From assembly GCA_005191425.1 (NCBI GenBank), contig SUPR01000003.1, positions 30,001 to 62,000 on the forward strand: a stretch of 32,000 nucleotides of DNA, read 5' to 3'. The notes under the pieces are model-generated. The model saw only the letters and a list, made by a program, of their open reading frames with translations. It did not search any database and was not told the origin of the DNA. This DNA comes from Candidatus Helarchaeota ASGARD archaeon Hel_GB_B (GTDB taxonomy: Archaea > Asgardarchaeota > Lokiarchaeia > Helarchaeales > HEL-GB-B). Shown piece after piece: positions 5,112 to 32,000 of the stretch (position 1 is its first letter; every line of letters begins with the position of its first letter). A program made the translations under genes and the position numbers.

Positions 5112-6518
5112 TTAATAATTATCCTATCTACTATATTAGTTTTCCAATATTAATAACAAAATAGATTTTAATTGAAATTTTTTAAAACTATTTACTATTG
5201 ATAATTAATATTTTAATACTTAAATTAATGAATTTTAAAAGTTGTTTTGAAACTATTATAAAATTATTATCTGTATTTTTCTATAAATTTTCTATGTTCT
5301 TTTTAATGATTTTTTATATTATATACTTTATTTTGTTATCAATAATTGATTTTTTTAATAATAAATAATAGTCATTAATTTGAAACCAACAATTTAAAGA
5401 ATAATACCACTTTAAAAATTAATGTTTTAAATTTTATTTTGGAAATTATCATTCATATTATAAATAATAAGGTAAAATAATTGTTGTATTTTACTAATAT
5501 TAAACTAAAAGTAATATTTTTTATTCCAAATACTATAACCCATCATTCTTCAATTGTAAATTATTATTTTCCAAAAATCTTTTCATTTCGTTAATTGTCT
5601 ATCGATTAAAATTCTTAATATAATAATTTACCTTGAATTTTGAATTAACGTGCGTTTTTTATATGTTCAAATTTATTTAATATTTTATATTCTTAAATGT
5701 ATTAAATAGCGCCTCTTTATTTTATTTCTAAAGTTTTTAACCATTAATTTAATAAAATTTTTCAAGATATTGTTCATACTACTATTTTTTTACTTTATTT
5801 AAATAGTATATTTATCCAACTATGAATTTTTTTGTTTAGTTTTTTAATAAATTTGAAAAATTGGAAGTTAAATTCTGATTGATAAGTAATTTTTGTTTTA
5901 AAAATCTGTTAATTAAATTTTTTTTATTCCGTACTAATGTCAAATTTTTAAAAAATTCTAATTATATTGCTTTCAAACTTTTTTCCAGCATATTATCATT
6001 TAGTTTAATAAATTTCATATTAAAATTTTAAGGATTTAATAAAAAATATTAATTTTTATTGTTGATAACATTATTCCCCTTTTAAATTTAATCAGGAAAG
6101 TCTAATTAAAACTTTTTAATTAACTTGATTTCTCATGAAAATTTTAAATAATCTACTCAATTACAAGAGATTTGGATAAATATGAAAAAAATATGTTATA
6201 TAATTGTATTTCAGATAAATTATTGTTAATAAAAAATAATAACCATTTTATGATGATATTAAAGATTTTATAATATTAATAATTTACCTTTACATGTCAA
6301 ATATAAATGGTATTAATATTTCATAAATTGAGATCTTTTAAAACAATCAAGCAATATGTTTGAAAAGGTATTATTTATATACATTAATGGATAAAGAATC
6401 TTAAAAAAATTCAATGAAAAAAATAAAAAATAATGTTTAAATTTAAAAACTAATGAATTGAATTTAAAATATTATTAAAAAGCTAAAATTAGAACAAAAA
6501 ACCATCGGTGAGACTATT

Positions 6519-8506: not shown

Positions 8507-9163
8507 TTATTTTTCATGAGGTGGTCTAATAAAAATATAATATTTATCAGTATTTTTTAGTTCTATTAGAACTCGTTTCATAATCATAATATCTGGCTCT
8601 CCTATTTTTGAAACTCTTTCAGTTAAATCCTTGAAATTTTTAAATTTCGCTTTTTTGCGTTCATTAATAATATCCCACATTAATTTTTTACCAATACCTG
8701 GAAGTAGTTCTAATTGGTGTTTTCTAGTGGTGATAGGGCGTGAATTATTAAAAAAATTCACAAACTGTTCTTCATTATCTCTAATTATATTTAAAATAGT
8801 ATCTTCTAGTTCAAATTTAGCGTTAGCAGTTAATTCATCATATGAAATCCTTCCTTTAATATGGTCTATAATGTCTCTTTGTCCAGAACCAATATATAAT
8901 TTATCTCGTATTTTAATTTGGGATTTATATGACTTTCTTGGGACTAATTCTAGCAATGTAAAATAATTAATGCCGATAGACTGAATTATCGGTTCTGTTT
9001 TAAAAGATTTAGCACGAGATTCAGCATGACCGCGAGGTAAATAATCCAGTACAATGACATAATCTTCAAATTTTTTCATAGGTTGCTGTCGAAGTTGTTT
9101 ATTACCAATATATGTTTTATTATTCTTCTTGTGATTAAAATTATCTAAATTCTTACCCATCAT
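8507..9163 (-). CDS. DUF655 family putative nucleic-acid-binding protein
   Basis: EDYVIVLDYLP.G, Q.IG..YFTLLEL, ITTRKHQLELLPGIGKKLMW.I and F..F.DL.ERV. Conserved position after rpo4. The start could be the later Met (MKKFEDY). Confidence 0.92.
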   Translation of the reverse strand: MMGKNLDNFNHKKNNKTYIGNKQLRQQPMKKFEDYVIVLDYLPRGHAESRAKSFKTEPIIQSIGINYFTLLELVPRKSYKSQIKIRDKLYIGSGQRDIIDHIKGRISYDELTANAKFELEDTILNIIRDNEEQFVNFFNNSRPITTRKHQLELLPGIGKKLMWDIINERKKAKFKNFKDLTERVSKIGEPDIMIMKRVLIELKNTDKYYIFIRPPHEK

Positions 9164-24762: not shown

Positions 24763-26975
24763 TACTCACTAACAATTTCTGGTAAATCCCAAACTTTTTT
24801 AAATTCAATTGCACCATTTGGGCATCGTTCTACGCATTTTTGGCAAGCAATACACTTTATTGGTGTTATATTAATAGTACCAAGTCCCAAAAAATTTTCA
24901 GGCAATTTTATTGGCTTGCTAGGTATTTTTAAAGCTATATTTTTTATTATATTAATAATCATTTTCTTGTTTATCGGTAATTCATCAAGTTCTTCTTTAG
25001 ATAATTTAAAAATCTCTTGAATATCCCACTCATTTACCAAGTTTAATGCTGATTCTGGGCAAACTTCTTCACAGCTTTTACATGCTATACATTTCTTAAT
25101 ATCCCAATATATTTTTCCAAAACCGACTATATATTGTTCATAATCAAATTCAGTTTCATATTTTATTTTTGGAATTTTTATTGGAATAAGATTTTCAATA
25201 TTGATATCAATTTCTTTTTTACCTAAATTTCTAGATATTGAATCAAAAGTTCTTAAAAGTCTGTGATAATCTTTAAGAATATTATTTAAATCTGTCCTAA
25301 TAACTTTATTTGAATTATATTTGATATTACTTAAATTAGTTAATTCTTCGTCTATTTTCAATAAAGTTTCAAAAACAATTTGAAAATTTTCCCCGTTAAT
25401 TTCGCTTATTTTCAACAAAAAGTCTAAATCATTTAAAATTACATATATATTATCAAATAATGTATCCAAAAATTTTTCTGCTTGGCTTAAAACATGTGGG
25501 ACATCATATATGAAATAATCTTTTTTTTCGTCAACAATATCTATTTGTTTATCATTTAACATAGTAAGAAGTAGCTCAATTATTTCTTTTTGCTCAATTT
25601 TTGTGATATTGGATAGATCAAAAGGTGTCATAGGGCCATAATTTTTTAAAGATACAATTATTAGAGCTTTATTGAATTCTGTTAATAAGTTTTGATCCAA
25701 AAAATTAGCCAAATTAAAATTATCTTCTGTATTTTCTGTCTGTAAGAATTGACCTTTTTCAAAAACCAATGGGATTTTTTTCATATTAAATAATTCAATT
25801 CCAGCTAAAACCCTCAAATTAAGTCTATTGACTTGTCCTTGCTTTTCAAATTCAATAATCTTATCATTAAATAATTGAATTTCATCATTTATTAATTTTA
25901 AATATTTTAAAATATTTTCTTCATTCATTATTTCCGAATTTTTTGAAATAATGTTTTTAATTTTATCTATTTTTATAAAAAAGTAATTTACTACTTGAAA
26001 TTCTCTTAATTTATTAAAATTCTTGCTTAAATCAATTATATTTTTTAGTATTTTACTTACAGGGGGTATATCACAAATTAATTTGTAGTTAATTGTATTA
26101 TCTTTTATAATAACATCCAATAATCTTCTATCCATTAATAAAAAAATAGCTTTTATTATTATATCACTTGATAAATTACTGATTTTAATCAAATCATCAA
26201 AATCAAATTCTATTTGGCTATTTAAAAGGAAGATAATTAATGATGCGACTAATTCTACCAGTAATGTATTTTGAATATACTTTACTGTTTCTGCTTCATT
26301 TATTTTTTTTGTTGTAAAAGCTTTTTTAATTTGTATAAACGAGAATGTCAATTTTTTATTTTTTAAAATTCCAATTAATTTATCATTTACATATTTAAAA
26401 AAAGAATTTATGACCTGTTCTTCAGGTATTAATTTTAGATTATTAAAATAAATAAATAAATTGCGTAATTCATCCATTGATCCAATATGTTGTAATTCTT
26501 TTAAATTTGGATTCGGTATTATCTTATTTATTATATTTTCTATATTATCTAAGTAATTATTAATCTTATTAAAAGTATTATTGATTAATTTTTCATCATA
26601 ACTCTTTTTTATTCTATATAGTTGTTCCTTTTTATCTCGAACTTTCAAATTTTGAATATCTTTAATTTTTTTAATATCAATTGATATTTCTTCAAATATA
26701 TTTAATAGATGTTTTTTTAAATTAAAATCTCTGACGTTATAAAGGATATTGTTAGAGTTAAGAAAAGATATTAAATCATTTTTTATGATGTTTTTTACTT
26801 TTTTTATTGAACCCTTAAATTCATTAAATTTACTAATAATTTCGTTAAATTCCTTCTTAATACCTGTATTTACATTAAAAGTTCTCTTTTTTATTGTTAA
26901 TAATTTTAATATTTGTTCTAAAAACTCCAATCTTTTTGATGGTATCTGAATATTTTCGATCAATAACCTACTCAC
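24732..26975 (-). CDS. 747-aa protein: long helical N-terminus, winged-helix-like middle and two C-terminal 4Fe-4S motifs
   Basis: CIACKSCEEVCP and CIACQKCVERCP near the C-terminus; LKNYGPMTPFDLSNITKIEQKEIIELL..M is HTH-like. GTG start overlaps the upstream gene by 8 nt. Confidence 0.85.
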   Translation of the reverse strand: MSRLLIENIQIPSKRLEFLEQILKLLTIKKRTFNVNTGIKKEFNEIISKFNEFKGSIKKVKNIIKNDLISFLNSNNILYNVRDFNLKKHLLNIFEEISIDIKKIKDIQNLKVRDKKEQLYRIKKSYDEKLINNTFNKINNYLDNIENIINKIIPNPNLKELQHIGSMDELRNLFIYFNNLKLIPEEQVINSFFKYVNDKLIGILKNKKLTFSFIQIKKAFTTKKINEAETVKYIQNTLLVELVASLIIFLLNSQIEFDFDDLIKISNLSSDIIIKAIFLLMDRRLLDVIIKDNTINYKLICDIPPVSKILKNIIDLSKNFNKLREFQVVNYFFIKIDKIKNIISKNSEIMNEENILKYLKLINDEIQLFNDKIIEFEKQGQVNRLNLRVLAGIELFNMKKIPLVFEKGQFLQTENTEDNFNLANFLDQNLLTEFNKALIIVSLKNYGPMTPFDLSNITKIEQKEIIELLLTMLNDKQIDIVDEKKDYFIYDVPHVLSQAEKFLDTLFDNIYVILNDLDFLLKISEINGENFQIVFETLLKIDEELTNLSNIKYNSNKVIRTDLNNILKDYHRLLRTFDSISRNLGKKEIDINIENLIPIKIPKIKYETEFDYEQYIVGFGKIYWDIKKCIACKSCEEVCPESALNLVNEWDIQEIFKLSKEELDELPINKKMIINIIKNIALKIPSKPIKLPENFLGLGTINITPIKCIACQKCVERCPNGAIEFKKVWDLPEIVSEYLNKFEFLGS

Positions 26976-29142
26976 TTTTTAATTTAAATTTTGGTAATTT
27001 ATCGAATTCATTTATTCTTTTTACAAAATCTTTAATTTTCAAGTATAATTTATTATTATCAGCTGCAAATGAAGTAAAGAATTCTATTCTATTTTTTTCC
27101 CAACCAATTGCCTCTAATATTTCCTTAGCAGCTTCTATTTGCATTTTTGCTTTAGAATTTCCATCAATATAATGGCATTTACCTTCATCACAAGCAATTA
27201 AAAAAACGCCATTAGCTCCTTCGTTAAAACATTTAAGAATATCTAATAATGACAATCTGCCACCACATGGTAAACGAATTAACCTGATATTATCTGAATA
27301 GCTTTTTCTTAATAATCCAAGCATATCTACCGAGGCATATGCACATTCATTACATACAAATCCTAGAATAATTGGTTTTTCAAATGTATGGGAATCTTTT
27401 AAAATAGATTCTATTTGAGCAAAAATCTCTTTGGGAGAATAATTATTTAATTTTGCTGCTCCAGTTGGGCAAACTGCATTACAAACTCCACATCCACGAC
27501 AAGAATATGGATCAATTAAAGCAAGGTATCTTACATCAGTTGAAGTTTCATTTTCCTTTTGTACCATATATGGGACTGAAAACGGGCATATCCTAACGCA
27601 TAGTTCACAGCCATTGCATAGTTCAGGATCTACAATCGTAAAATTCTGAGTATTAAAGATTTCAGGGAATTCAAATAATTTAATTATTTCCATCGACACT
27701 GAGTTTGCTTCTTTTAATGTTTCATCAATTAATTTAGGGCCCAAAACTGTTCCGCACGCAAAAATTCCATTTCGTGAAGTTTCAATATTATTTTGTTTTG
27801 GATATTTTCCTTGAATAAATCCTTTATTCCATGTTTTAATATTGATTTGATTTAATAACTTTATATTCTCCTTATTAGGGATAATTGCTGTGGATAAAAC
27901 AATTAAATCTGGATGAATTATTAAGACTTTTTGTAATAATGAGTCGTAAATTGTTACTGACAACTTATTCTGTATTTTTTCAATTTTTCCCAATTCTCCT
28001 CTTATAAAATTTATTCCTAAAGACCTGGCTTTTTGATAATCATATTCTGCTTTCCAAGGTGTCCTAATATCTATGTAAAGAATTGTAATTTCAAATTTTG
28101 GGAAATTGTTAAGAATTTCAATAGAATAATTAATAGCTGTTATACAACAATATTTACTACAATAATCATAATACTTTTTATTTCTTGAACCAACACATTG
28201 GACTATTAAAATTCGCTTTTTTAACTTGTTATCGCTAAATATTTTCATTAAATCTTTATCAGCATTATTTATATTATGATTTTTTAAAAAATTAAAAAAT
28301 TCTCCTAACTCAGATAAGGTAATTACATTTTTTTCTTCATCATATTTGTAAAAATCATTTAATTTTGGCCGAAAAATATCATGGCCCGTGGCTAATACTA
28401 GAACGGACGCATTTAATGTTTTTTCATTTAATTTATTATCGTGTTCTACGATTTTAACGGTATAATTCCCCAAATTTCCTATTATCCATTCAACATTCCA
28501 ATTAGTTAATATTCTAATTTTTTGAAAGTTTAATGATTTTACAATTTTTTCTATGAAATCTTTTCCTGATGTATTATATGGATGAATAAATGGTAATTTA
28601 TTGATAAATCCACCCAAGTAATTTTCTTTTTCTATAATTGTTATTTCATAACCAAGATCTTGTAAATTTTTTGCTATCTGTAATCCTGCTATTCCCCCCC
28701 CAATAATAACTAACTTCTTTTCTAATTCTTTGACCTCATTTGTTTTATATTCTTTAGTAAATAATTTATCAATGTGCGATTTTATTAATATTGTAGCCTT
28801 GTAAGTAGCTTTATTAGATTCATGAACCCAAGCACATTGTTCGCGTATATTTGCGACTTCAAATAAGATATTTTGTAGATTATATTTTTTTAACTCAAGC
28901 TTAAGTTTCATTTCTATTATCTGTGGTGTACAACCTCCAAATACAATACCTTTAATATTTTTTGTTTCCAAGATTTTAATTAGTTTTTGAAATCCTTCAG
29001 TTGAGCATAAATGGTCAAAAATATAGATGGAAGAGAGGGGAAATTCTTTTTTTAAATCAGATTCTATTAATTTAAAATTTAATTCCATTGTATTTCCGCA
29101 AGTACAAAGGCAAATTAAAACTTGATCTTGGTTAAGAAATAT
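26968..29142 (-). CDS. hdrA: HdrA-like flavoprotein fused to a C-terminal MvhD domain (QmoB-like architecture)
   Basis: N-terminal domain (GGCTP, ANIREQCAWVH), IIGGGIAG FAD site, VQCVGSR..YCSKYCC, GIFACG, ferredoxin CNGCELCVRICP / CRGCGVCNAVCP, and MvhD part FVCNECAY...RLPCGG...ACDEGKCHY. The first ATG is at 29088, but the conserved VLICLCTCG motif lies upstream in frame, so I extended the start to the ATA at 29142 (uncertain). Confidence 0.9.
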   Translation of the reverse strand: MFLNQDQVLICLCTCGNTMELNFKLIESDLKKEFPLSSIYIFDHLCSTEGFQKLIKILETKNIKGIVFGGCTPQIIEMKLKLELKKYNLQNILFEVANIREQCAWVHESNKATYKATILIKSHIDKLFTKEYKTNEVKELEKKLVIIGGGIAGLQIAKNLQDLGYEITIIEKENYLGGFINKLPFIHPYNTSGKDFIEKIVKSLNFQKIRILTNWNVEWIIGNLGNYTVKIVEHDNKLNEKTLNASVLVLATGHDIFRPKLNDFYKYDEEKNVITLSELGEFFNFLKNHNINNADKDLMKIFSDNKLKKRILIVQCVGSRNKKYYDYCSKYCCITAINYSIEILNNFPKFEITILYIDIRTPWKAEYDYQKARSLGINFIRGELGKIEKIQNKLSVTIYDSLLQKVLIIHPDLIVLSTAIIPNKENIKLLNQINIKTWNKGFIQGKYPKQNNIETSRNGIFACGTVLGPKLIDETLKEANSVSMEIIKLFEFPEIFNTQNFTIVDPELCNGCELCVRICPFSVPYMVQKENETSTDVRYLALIDPYSCRGCGVCNAVCPTGAAKLNNYSPKEIFAQIESILKDSHTFEKPIILGFVCNECAYASVDMLGLLRKSYSDNIRLIRLPCGGRLSLLDILKCFNEGANGVFLIACDEGKCHYIDGNSKAKMQIEAAKEILEAIGWEKNRIEFFTSFAADNNKLYLKIKDFVKRINEFDKLPKFKLKSE

Positions 29143-30478
29143 TATCCCTCCTAAAATTGTTAATTTCTTTAAAAATTTTTAGTGCAATACTTTTTGAAGA
29201 TGTTATTGTATCAACAATATCCATTGGACTTATAACAGACCCACAAGCATAAATTCCTTCTATATTGGTGGTAATTTGATCTTCTTTTACATTAATAAAA
29301 CCTTCAGAAGTTAATTCTAAATTTAATTTTCTGGATAATTCTATACTATCCTTAGACATAATAATTGCTGTACTTAATACTAATAAATCAGCTTGAATAA
29401 TAAGTACCGCATTCAATAGAGCATCATATATTTTTAAAGTTAATTTATTATCATTTTCTTTATTTTCTGATTGTTTAATATCTATTAATCTTCCCTTGAT
29501 AAATTTCACATCATTTTCTCGAGCTTGGGTATAATATTTTTCTAAAAACCCCATTGTCCTAATATCTATGTAAACGATATAAACTTCAGGGGGTGGGTCA
29601 TAATTTTCTTTTAGTATTTTTGCATTTTTGATAGCATATTCACAACAAAGTACACTACAATATCTATTATATTTTTCATCTCTAGACCCTACACATTGCA
29701 CTATAACTATTGATTTAACTTCTTTTTGATTTGATGGACGTATTAATTTTCCTTGAGTTGGTCCGTTTGGGTCTATCATTAATACTAATTGATATTGTGT
29801 TATTACATCTTTATATATTCCATATTTGTAGTCGTTCATTAATTTTGGGATATATTCATCAAAACCTGTTGCTAATATTATATCTGCACATGAAATATTT
29901 ATATGGATGTCTTTTTCGTTTAGATTAATTGCATTGACCGGACATGATTTTTCACATAAATTACACCCAAATTTGCATTTATCTTGATTAATAATAAAAT
30001 AGTTAGATATACATTGTGGATAATGGCTTGATATAATCGGAAGATCTGGATTTCCTTTAAAAACCTCATTTAAATCGTTAATTTTTGGGCACACTACTAA
30101 ACATTTTCCACAATTAATACAATCTTGGTTAACATATGTAGCGTGTTTTATTAATTTAATTTTAAAATTTCCTTTTTTACCAGAGCAAGATTCAAGTTCT
30201 GTATTATTAAGTAGAACAATATTTGGATGAAAATTTATCCCAGATCGATAAAAGCATTTTCTTATGCCATCCTTATATTTGGTGGAAAGGAGACAAAAAA
30301 AACAATCATCTGTGGGAAATGCTTTATAGAGGTGGCCGGCATGCCCTCCAAAAAAGGGTTTTTTCTCAATTAAGTATATTTTAAAACCCAAATCTGCCAA
30401 TTGTATTGCCATATTTAGGCCAGCAATACCGCCACCAAAAATACTTATCGTTTTTTCTGTTTCCAAATTTTTACTCAT
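29132..30478 (-). CDS. hdrA: HdrA-like flavoprotein lacking the N-terminal and C-terminal ferredoxin domains (QmoA-like length, with inserted ferredoxin)
   Basis: IFGGGIAG, KAFPTDDCFFC, CINCGKCLVVCP, CKFGCNLCEKSCP, ILATGF, VQCVGSRD..YCSVLCC, DIRT.G and GIYACG...P.DI. Confidence 0.92.
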   Translation of the reverse strand: MSKNLETEKTISIFGGGIAGLNMAIQLADLGFKIYLIEKKPFFGGHAGHLYKAFPTDDCFFCLLSTKYKDGIRKCFYRSGINFHPNIVLLNNTELESCSGKKGNFKIKLIKHATYVNQDCINCGKCLVVCPKINDLNEVFKGNPDLPIISSHYPQCISNYFIINQDKCKFGCNLCEKSCPVNAINLNEKDIHINISCADIILATGFDEYIPKLMNDYKYGIYKDVITQYQLVLMIDPNGPTQGKLIRPSNQKEVKSIVIVQCVGSRDEKYNRYCSVLCCEYAIKNAKILKENYDPPPEVYIVYIDIRTMGFLEKYYTQARENDVKFIKGRLIDIKQSENKENDNKLTLKIYDALLNAVLIIQADLLVLSTAIIMSKDSIELSRKLNLELTSEGFINVKEDQITTNIEGIYACGSVISPMDIVDTITSSKSIALKIFKEINNFRRDNIS

Positions 30479-30776
30479 CTTTTACATACCAATGATGTTT
30501 TAATCGTAATTTATATATTTCAAATTCCAAATTTGTTAATTCATTTTGTAGGGCTTTTATTTCAATATTAAATTTCTCTTGGGATATTTCTCCAATTTGC
30601 TTTTGGACGACCAAATTCTTTAATTCTAATTGTTTTAATTTTATTGATTTTTTAATCTCTTCAAATTTATCTCTATTTTCTGAGATTATTTGTTTCCATT
30701 TATTACTAGATTTGTTTGTCTTATCTAATTGGTCGATAATTTCCATTAATTTTTTTCTTTTTTCTTCATCAATCAC
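30471..30776 (-). CDS. Small coiled-coil hypothetical protein (101 aa)
   Basis: GTG start; overlaps hdrA by 8 nt. The QIGEISQEKF..EIKAL...L motif resembles SHOCT/CdvA-type coiled-coil ends. Confidence 0.7.
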   Translation of the reverse strand: MIDEEKRKKLMEIIDQLDKTNKSSNKWKQIISENRDKFEEIKKSIKLKQLELKNLVVQKQIGEISQEKFNIEIKALQNELTNLEFEIYKLRLKHHWYVKDE

Positions 30777-30811
30777 TTTTCAAACAACTTTATATTATTT
30801 CTACACACTAT

Positions 30812-30880
30812 AATCGATCCCTGTGCAAGGGTGTCCTATTCAGAGCAGCTCTTTAAGTCTGAACAGTCATTCTATCGATT
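30812..30880 (-). promoter_or_regulatory. Eukaryote-type (Lokiarchaeota-like) SECIS element
   Basis: Minus strand: AAUCGAU-AGA-AUGA-CUGUUCAGA-CUUAAAGAGCUGC-UCUGAAUAG-GA-CA-CCCU(UGCAC)AGGG-AUCGAUU. It shows an AUGA/GA core, a 9-bp helix II (one G-U), AAA in the apical loop and a 7-bp helix I, directly after a UGA-containing vhuD. Confidence 0.88.
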
Positions 30881-31307
30881 TTTGCTTTTTTAATGGGTTA
30901 AGTCCCATTTTTTCCACATCTGCTGCGACTTTTTCAATGATATCTTTCAGTTTGTCAGCTTCGGCAGCTGATACAAAATGCATTTGTACCCGGTCTTCAT
31001 TAATTCCAATGTCTTTCAATAATTCTCTAACAAATTTAACTCGTCTGGCGCATGCTAAATTCCCTACTTTATATTCGCAATCTCCGGGATGTCAACCAAC
31101 GCTAATCACTGCATCTGCGCCATCTACTAGTCCCCGTAAGATGTGATTGACATCTACTCGACCTGTACATGGTAACCTAAGAATTCTTACTATCGGATTA
31201 TATTGTAGCTTAAGAGTCCCTGCTAAATCTGCAGCAGAATAGGAACACCTCATACATGCAAACATTAATACGACAGGTTGTTGCTCTTTAATTTTACATC
31301 ACTCCAT
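30867..31307 (-). CDS. vhuD: Selenocysteine-containing MvhD/VhuD (hydrogenase/Hdr 2Fe-2S delta subunit), 146 codons; absent from the ORF track
   Basis: Hand translation: ME(U)CKIKEQQPVVLMFACMRCSYSAADLAGTLKLQYNPIVRILRLPCTGRVDVNHILRGLVDGADAVISVG(U)HPGDCEYKVGNLACARRVKFVRELLKDIGINEDRVQMHFVSAAEADKLKDIIEKVAADVEKMGLNPLKKQKSIE*. TGA at 31094-31092 (codon 72) sits at a conserved Cys/Sec ligand position and family similarity continues past it. Confidence 0.95.
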
Positions 31308-32000
31308 TTAATTATTTTCTTTTAAAATTGCATCTATTTGATTTAATATTTGGACATCTTTCCACCATCTTAAATCTCGAGCTCCAATTGGACAAGATGC
31401 TACACAGATCCCACATCCTTTACATTTCATTTCATCTGTTGTTGAAATCATTTTAAAAGGGCTAATATCTTTAATTGATATTGCATCATATGGACATACA
31501 ACTTCACATAGACCACATCCAACGCATTTTTCTATATCAACATCAGCTCTGATCATCTCAATTTCGATTCCTTTATGTTTAATTGCTGAAATACTTGCTG
31601 CCCCACGGGCAAGTGCAATGGTATCTGAAATATCTTTTGGAAAGGTAGACGCAGTATAAATTCCTGGAACTTTTGTCTCAACAGGTTTAAATTTTAAGTG
31701 AAGTTCTTCGATAAACCCATCTTCCGATCTAGTGATACCAAGTATTTTGCATAAATTTTCTATATCATCTGGTGCTTCTTGTCCAACAGCTAAAATCACA
31801 TAATCTATTTTTAATTCTAATTCTTTTTTTAATAATGTATCAAATATTTTTACTATAATCTTATCAGAATCTATTGCTTTGCTAACTTTTGGTGGAAAAT
31901 TCGGTTCCCACCTTATATAATTGACTCCCATTAATTGAGATGTGATATAATTTTCTTCCATATATCTACCAAATGCCCTAATAGATTCTTTATAAAGTAC
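31308..32000 (-). CDS. hdrA: Heterodisulfide reductase subunit A, C-terminal part (5'-truncated by the window edge)
   Basis: Frame open to the window end (VLYKESIRAFGRYMEENY, the LY.DIR..G motif). Also DYVILAVG, DGFIEELHLKFKPVET.VPGIY, PKDISDT, CVGCGLCEVVCPY and CKGCGICVASCP. Confidence 0.95.
   Translation of the reverse strand, partial: VLYKESIRAFGRYMEENYITSQLMGVNYIRWEPNFPPKVSKAIDSDKIIVKIFDTLLKKELELKIDYVILAVGQEAPDDIENLCKILGITRSEDGFIEELHLKFKPVETKVPGIYTASTFPKDISDTIALARGAASISAIKHKGIEIEMIRADVDIEKCVGCGLCEVVCPYDAISIKDISPFKMISTTDEMKCKGCGICVASCPIGARDLRWWKDVQILNQIDAILKENN

Follow-up and report, generated by a model that had tools for sequence, protein, structure and literature searches.

How can a single UGA end a selenoprotein gene and, at the same time, belong to the very element through which another UGA is read as Sec? 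This question is raised by the vhuD/mvhD gene of an Asgard (Lokiarchaeia) archaeon, located on the minus strand of the 32,000-nucleotide stretch of DNA analyzed here (the window, whose coordinates are used throughout). A first-pass annotation of this stretch had placed the stop codon of vhuD inside the core of a SECIS element and had seen in this arrangement a possibly undescribed design.

Anatomy of the vhuD gene and of the element at its 3' end

The translated vhuD product matched the Pfam family FlpD (PF02662) with 144.7 bits (curated cut-off, 22.3), residues 1-121 corresponding to positions 3-123 of the 123-position profile. The site of its single Sec codon is occupied in orthologues by TGA or by a codon for Cys. 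The 3' end of the gene reads ...AAA AAG CAA AAA UCG AUA GAA UGA (K K Q K S I E stop), and the SECIS element starts within the last four codons. The geometry described by the first-pass annotation was confirmed: together with the A at 30870 before it, the stop codon forms the AUGA of the SECIS core, coding sequence makes up the 5' strand of the lower helix, and one triplet serves both as terminator of the reading frame and as part of the SECIS core. The features of the locus are as follows:

30867-31265, minus strand: vhuD/mvhD coding sequence, translated from the ATG at 31265 to the stop UGA at 30869-30867
31092-31094, minus strand: in-frame UGA read as Sec within G-U-H-P-G-D-C, the one Sec codon of vhuD, 224 nt 5' of the SECIS core
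31308-31310, minus strand: UAA stop of the double-HdrA gene upstream of vhuD (HdrA of 1024 aa, without in-frame UGA)
30812-30880, minus strand: whole SECIS element, Loki-type and eukaryote-like, adjoining and overlapping the 3' end of vhuD
30874-30880, minus strand: 5' strand of the SECIS lower helix, AAUCGAU, inside the codons K-S-I (MFE fold)
30871-30873, minus strand: internal loop AGA, between lower helix and core
30867-30870, minus strand: SECIS core AUGA, whose UGA (30869-30867) is the vhuD stop codon
30866-30858 with 30844-30836, minus strand: perfect upper stem of 9 bp (9/9 standard pairs)
30845-30857, minus strand: apical loop of 13 nt, CUUAAAGAGCUGC, with AAA at loop positions 4-6 and no terminal G
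30834-30835, minus strand: 3' core GA, the expected G.A/A.G tandem partner of the UGA, with CA next to it
30819-30831, minus strand: 3' side hairpin CCCU-UGCAC-AGGG, between the GA and the 3' strand of the lower helix
30812-30818, minus strand: 3' strand of the lower helix, AUCGAUU, pairing with AAUCGAU at 30880-30874

The unconstrained MFE fold of the element consisted of exactly three helices, namely the lower helix, the upper stem and the side hairpin. The apical loops of all four vhuD SECIS elements of this genome measure 12-14 nt, apparently a lineage-specific variant of the sort that PMC11227280 describes.

Several lines of evidence point to this element being a Loki-type SECIS, predicted to serve the UGA at 31094-31092. 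Within the 44 loci first fetched, the combination of AUGA, 9 bp and GA was found beside 15/15 Sec-type vhuD genes and beside 0/29 Cys-type genes, the latter including the genome's own seven Cys-type copies as well as the orthologues L017 and L021. Pairing in the upper stem amounts to 92% across 34 elements taken from other genomes, where all nine pairs covary on both sides and 0/500 shuffles matched this level. The lower helix of these relatives occurs in 34 distinct, mutually complementary versions, and an equivalent of the 3' side hairpin is present, its loop being of the GCA/GCAA type and its stems covarying; both helices were assessed by own-versus-cross complementarity and by unconstrained folding, as MAFFT could not align the 3' half column-wise. 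Without any constraint, 31/46 relatives fold into the three-helix layout. The AUG of the core is invariant, its fourth base is A in 33/34 aligned relatives, and GA or AA follows 3' of the main stem in all of them.

With R1, a core-only covariance model built from the 34 other-genome elements, the window element reached a marginal 15.5 bits (E of 0.078 in the window), a score tied by one spurious window match. An R1 search of the whole genome recovered one known element, with 150 of about 14,790 candidates scored, and the genome-wide listing of SECIS elements is that of a pattern scan. No SECIS family was found in an Rfam scan of positions 26000-32000 with E values up to 10, which gave one chance snoRNA-like match. 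Regarding the Sec machinery, the genome encodes SepSecS (379.7 bits). The failure to detect a tRNA-Sec says little, since Aragorn predicts only 6-7 tRNAs in total for this assembly; the sole match of an RF01852 search of the assembly was a tRNA-Cys (33 bits). A search of the genome for a Sec-type VhuU motif (DP-U-xx-C-xx-H) gave no match.

At the 5' end of vhuD, the gap to the HdrA stop (31310-31308) amounts to 0-42 nt, depending on the vhuD start codon. The conserved N-terminal strand QPVVLMFAC is encoded 5' of the ATG at 31265, which places the start further 5', and orthologues start 9-12 codons before the MFAC motif. The true start is probably either the ATT at 31292-31290 or the ATG at 31307-31305 followed by an in-frame TGA. 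This ATG is the sole one upstream of the ATG at 31265, and it is followed by GAG UGA. In the same-genus orthologue L016, the in-frame TGA and the AGTGAT motif are kept with no preceding ATG (AAG AAG TGA), and the ATT is kept three to four codons after this TGA. Judged from these sequences, an SD-like GGAGUGAU together with a non-AUG (ATT) start is favoured over Sec at codon 3.

Directly 3' of the SECIS element, the minus strand holds a further ORF (30471-30776) coding for 101 aa, which is rich in Lys and Glu, has no Pfam match and probably forms a coiled coil. The same ORF also stands 3' of the Cys-type orthologues L017 and L021.

Stop codon positions among lokiarchaeial relatives

The distance from the first base of the stop codon to the U of the core UGA (offset) was determined for 46 Sec-type vhuD genes of the class Lokiarchaeia. 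The counts do not include L045 and L046 (short AUGA-AGG-GA remnant), L057, L062 (UUGA-type core) or L077 (GUGA core), for which the simple pattern detected no standard SECIS element. The offsets were distributed as follows:

Offset 0 nt: 9 genes, stop UGA
Offset 4 nt: 5 genes, all stops UGA
Offset 5 nt: 9 genes, all stops UAG
Offset 6-7 nt: 3 genes, stop UAA
Offset 10-19 nt: 19 genes, mostly UAA, with two UGA at 16 nt
Offset 30 nt: 1 gene, stop UAA

Stop codon and core UGA coincide in 9 of the 46 genes, and the arrangement of the window thus recurs among Lokiarchaeia; another 17 stops are located 4-7 nt and the remaining 20 stops 10-30 nt upstream. The vhuD stop is nearly always found within or directly 5' of the SECIS element, and the offsets form a continuum that includes exact overlap. 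Across these 46 relatives, the identity of the stop codon also follows its position: a stop 5 nt before the core reads UAG-R-AUGA, and one 4 nt before it reads UGA-AUGA. The stop codons seem to be drawn from the consensus of the SECIS internal loop, U-A/G-G/A-R.

The core UGA is in frame with vhuD in 15/46 genes (33%), where chance predicts one third; this statistic has low power, the 46 genes being phylogenetically clustered and mostly from two genera. The overlap is thus real, yet no commoner than expected by chance. On a tree of the protein without its C-terminal tail, the overlap state changed at least four times, and it differs between close relatives (L001/L016, L055/L056, and L080 versus L052, L058, L061 and L067). 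Even within the genome studied here, only one of four Sec-type vhuD genes ends at the core UGA, and the other three carry UAA at 6, 10 and 14 nt before it. Together with the UAA of the sister orthologue L016, these observations show an overlap that is largely incidental among homologues. In one clade of another family, 7/8 sampled genes keep the overlap; the state is thus capable of persisting and might bring a benefit.

These data also bear on the idea that the overlap is a selected regulatory device. Terminating ribosomes would then unfold the SECIS element, or displace its binding protein, and thereby pace Sec insertion by the ribosomes behind them, much as the first-pass annotation had suggested; alternatively, occupancy by the SECIS-binding protein would tune termination. 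The geometry indeed makes unfolding at termination unavoidable, and the overlap is found in at least three lineages, with the retention in 7/8 genes of one clade speaking in the same direction. However, the same unfolding is to be expected in nearly all relatives, their stops lying 4-19 nt from the core, and therefore does not single out zero spacing. The state switches freely between sister taxa, the in-frame rate shows no bias, and the three other Sec-type vhuD genes of this genome manage without the overlap. We therefore consider a regulatory device unlikely. A shade more doubtful still is a more specific version, in which the core UGA was selected as a fail-safe or pacing terminator and displacement of a kink-turn protein couples the rate at which VhuD is completed to the availability of the SECIS element for ribosomes that are still at the Sec codon upstream. 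If this were true, genes with the stop in the core would be regulated differently from paralogues with an upstream stop.

Probable origin of the overlap and predicted termination at the core UGA

In the sister orthologue L016 (84% identical), the coding sequence closes with ...PLKK UAA; this stop is in frame with the core UGA and precedes it by 15 nt. At the corresponding position, the window has a sense codon:

30882-30884, minus strand: CAA (Gln), likely stop-loss site, aligned with the UAA of L016 in the same frame

More distant orthologues end near ...PLKK, ...PFRKK or ...PFRTK. Because L016 and these orthologues end earlier, the five extra codons of the window (QKSIE) look derived, the polarity of the UAA/CAA change resting on few outgroups. 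Most likely, loss of the ordinary stop codon lengthened the gene by five codons, up to the UGA that is the next stop in this frame.

A trivial explanation would be an assembly or sequencing artefact, with a UAA as the real stop in place of CAA. The sequence stems from a metagenome-assembled genome, and CAA is one base away from the UAA of the sister. Against this, contigs from three other metagenome runs or studies (X3, X5 and X7) showed zero differences over positions 30775-30948, and the G at 30884 of the plus strand was reproduced in these independent contigs. Because three independent contig sets agree over this region, the overlap and the CAA are not assembly errors, and an artefact is the least probable of all readings considered here.

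How, then, might the core UGA end translation? The vhuD mRNA is predicted to contain a single Sec codon, the UGA at 31094-31092, which would be decoded with the help of a Loki-type SECIS element with a kink-turn core. Judging from ribosome footprints in general, a ribosome with this UGA in its A site would cover the core together with some 9-12 nt of mRNA beyond it, which amounts to the entire 5' strand of the upper stem. When the core UGA reaches the A site, the lower helix would already be unwound, the ribosome would sit on the core, and the 5' strand of the upper stem would lie in the mRNA channel. With no folded SECIS element present at that moment, Sec-tRNA would not be delivered and the release factor would act. 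Because the element could not be folded at this stage, it would be unable to promote Sec insertion at its own UGA.

The position of this UGA may be explained by the compactness of the gene end. The SECIS elements of lokiarchaeial vhuD genes all adjoin or overlap the end of the gene, and their structurally fixed core UGA is in frame by chance in about one third of cases. Loss of the ordinary stop, located a few codons upstream, would let translation continue to this fixed UGA, a next stop that cannot drift because the SECIS element needs it. Compared with the sister species, the window would have gained QKSIE through a change from UAA to CAA. Taken as a whole, we are fairly confident in the account that the core UGA terminates translation and that the overlap is a by-product of a compact gene end, with no dedicated design behind it.

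Zero spacing had been proposed as the feature that keeps the SECIS element from recoding its own UGA and so separates stop from Sec. One half of this proposal stands: a UGA this close would go unserved, in line with the published structural-constraint or minimal-distance argument by which nearby UGA stops escape recoding (PMC4989117). The other half does not, as zero spacing is not needed, given the UGA stops at 4 and 16 nt. UGA is in any case common as a stop in Loki selenoprotein genes (PMC4989117).

The same argument weighs on the reading in which the core UGA is sometimes decoded as Sec, giving a C-terminally extended VhuD (U-LFRLKELL-U-...). The peptide sequence given in the first-pass annotation is correct by translation, the codon is a UGA in a Sec-decoding organism, and the downstream frame continues through 9 codons before another UGA and through 12 more before a UAG. 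However, this extension crosses the SECIS stems and is unconserved, the UAA of the sister orthologue lies five codons earlier, and relatives have UAG or UAA stops at nearby positions. Moreover, recoding presupposes a minimal distance between UGA and SECIS element, both in the published model and in its eukaryotic precedent (PMC4989117). Altogether, Sec read-through is highly improbable, and termination at the core UGA as outlined above is the reading we prefer.

Comparison with known SECIS elements

With eukaryotic SECIS elements, the element of the window shares the AUGA/GA quartet, the apical adenines, the succession of helix I and helix II and the kink-turn core. In contrast, eukaryotic elements occupy positions deep in the 3'UTR, their helix II is longer, and their binding protein is SBP2, which was not detected in Lokiarchaeota. 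To our knowledge, no overlap of a eukaryotic SECIS element with a stop codon has been described. A eukaryotic UGA too near the SECIS element goes unrecoded, according to the work of Martin et al. (1996) as it is cited in PMC4989117. Bacterial SECIS elements resemble the window element in that they overlap coding sequence, are unfolded by each ribosome and refold in each round (PMC13188914). They differ in being located immediately 3' of the Sec UGA, in forming a hairpin that binds SelB and lacks a kink-turn core, and in acting on the adjacent codon only.

The three-helix layout was seen in all vhuD SECIS elements examined (window, L004, L006, L009, L016 and about 40 others): the lower helix closes a junction of the AUGA/GA core with the 9-bp stem and a small 3' hairpin. 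The side hairpin is absent from the main texts of PMC4989117 and PMC11227280, although both mention lower stems, and the literature searched did not contain Asgard SECIS elements paired with a three-way junction. Core variants were observed as well. AUGA_AA cores occur in Helarchaeales (PMC11227280), and L019 (family f2) shows AUGA...AA. In L018 and L020, which belong to the same order and family f2, AUGC instead of AUGA precedes the stem and AA stands on the 3' side; with C as the fourth core base, the sheared A.G pair expected there would be disrupted. Furthermore, L045 (G003:C59) and L046 (G001:C57) are vhuD genes with two in-frame UGAs, downstream of which the lower helix and the side hairpin are kept and AUGA-AGG-GA takes the place of the 9-bp stem and loop. 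These may represent a collapsed SECIS element, or the functional element may be located elsewhere.

Within Asgard archaea, close counterparts include the eSECIS-like type I elements of hdrA/frhD, which likewise have an AUGA_GA core and are located 3' of frhD/vhuD (PMC11227280). According to the survey of Huang et al. (2024), a single element nearly always serves hdrA and frhD together (PMC11227280), whereas the HdrA of the window lacks Sec and the SECIS element would serve a single UGA. As a separate observation, three hdrA genes of the genome studied here (C41 at about 5749-5860, C167 at about 2125-2250 and C122 at about 8609-8700) contain two in-frame UGAs each and have a complete SECIS element of their own right after the stop (UAA, UAA and UAG, respectively). 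On C41 and C167, the vhuD gene following hdrA carries a second SECIS element of its own. These hdrA-owned elements depart from the published rule of one shared element 3' of vhuD.

The overlap of stop codon and core is itself documented. Mariotti et al. (2016) described the AUGA of the lokiSECIS doubling as the stop codon in VhuU.1 of Lokiarchaeum (PMC4989117), and Huang et al. (2024) reported that UGA stops of Lokiarchaeia often overlap the AUGA motif (PMC11227280). The earlier view of an undescribed design is contradicted by these two publications. The lokiSECIS of VhuU.1 shares with the window element the AUGA, the 9-bp stem, the A-rich loop and the GA, its location at the gene end and the use of AUGA as stop (PMC4989117). 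It differs in belonging to a VhuU gene and in having a canonical 11-nt loop that begins with adenines and ends in (A)G, where the VhuD element of the window has 13 nt and no G.

Consequently, the overlap in the window is a further instance of an already known arrangement, in another member of the gene family and another lineage, and by itself it adds little beyond one more well-documented case. Of wider use is the natural series of stop-to-core distances (0, 4, 5, 6-7, 10-19 and 30 nt), in which all three stop codons are present. In combination with sister pairs that differ only in the overlap, this series could guide work on the minimal distance between UGA and SECIS element in the Asgard Sec system.
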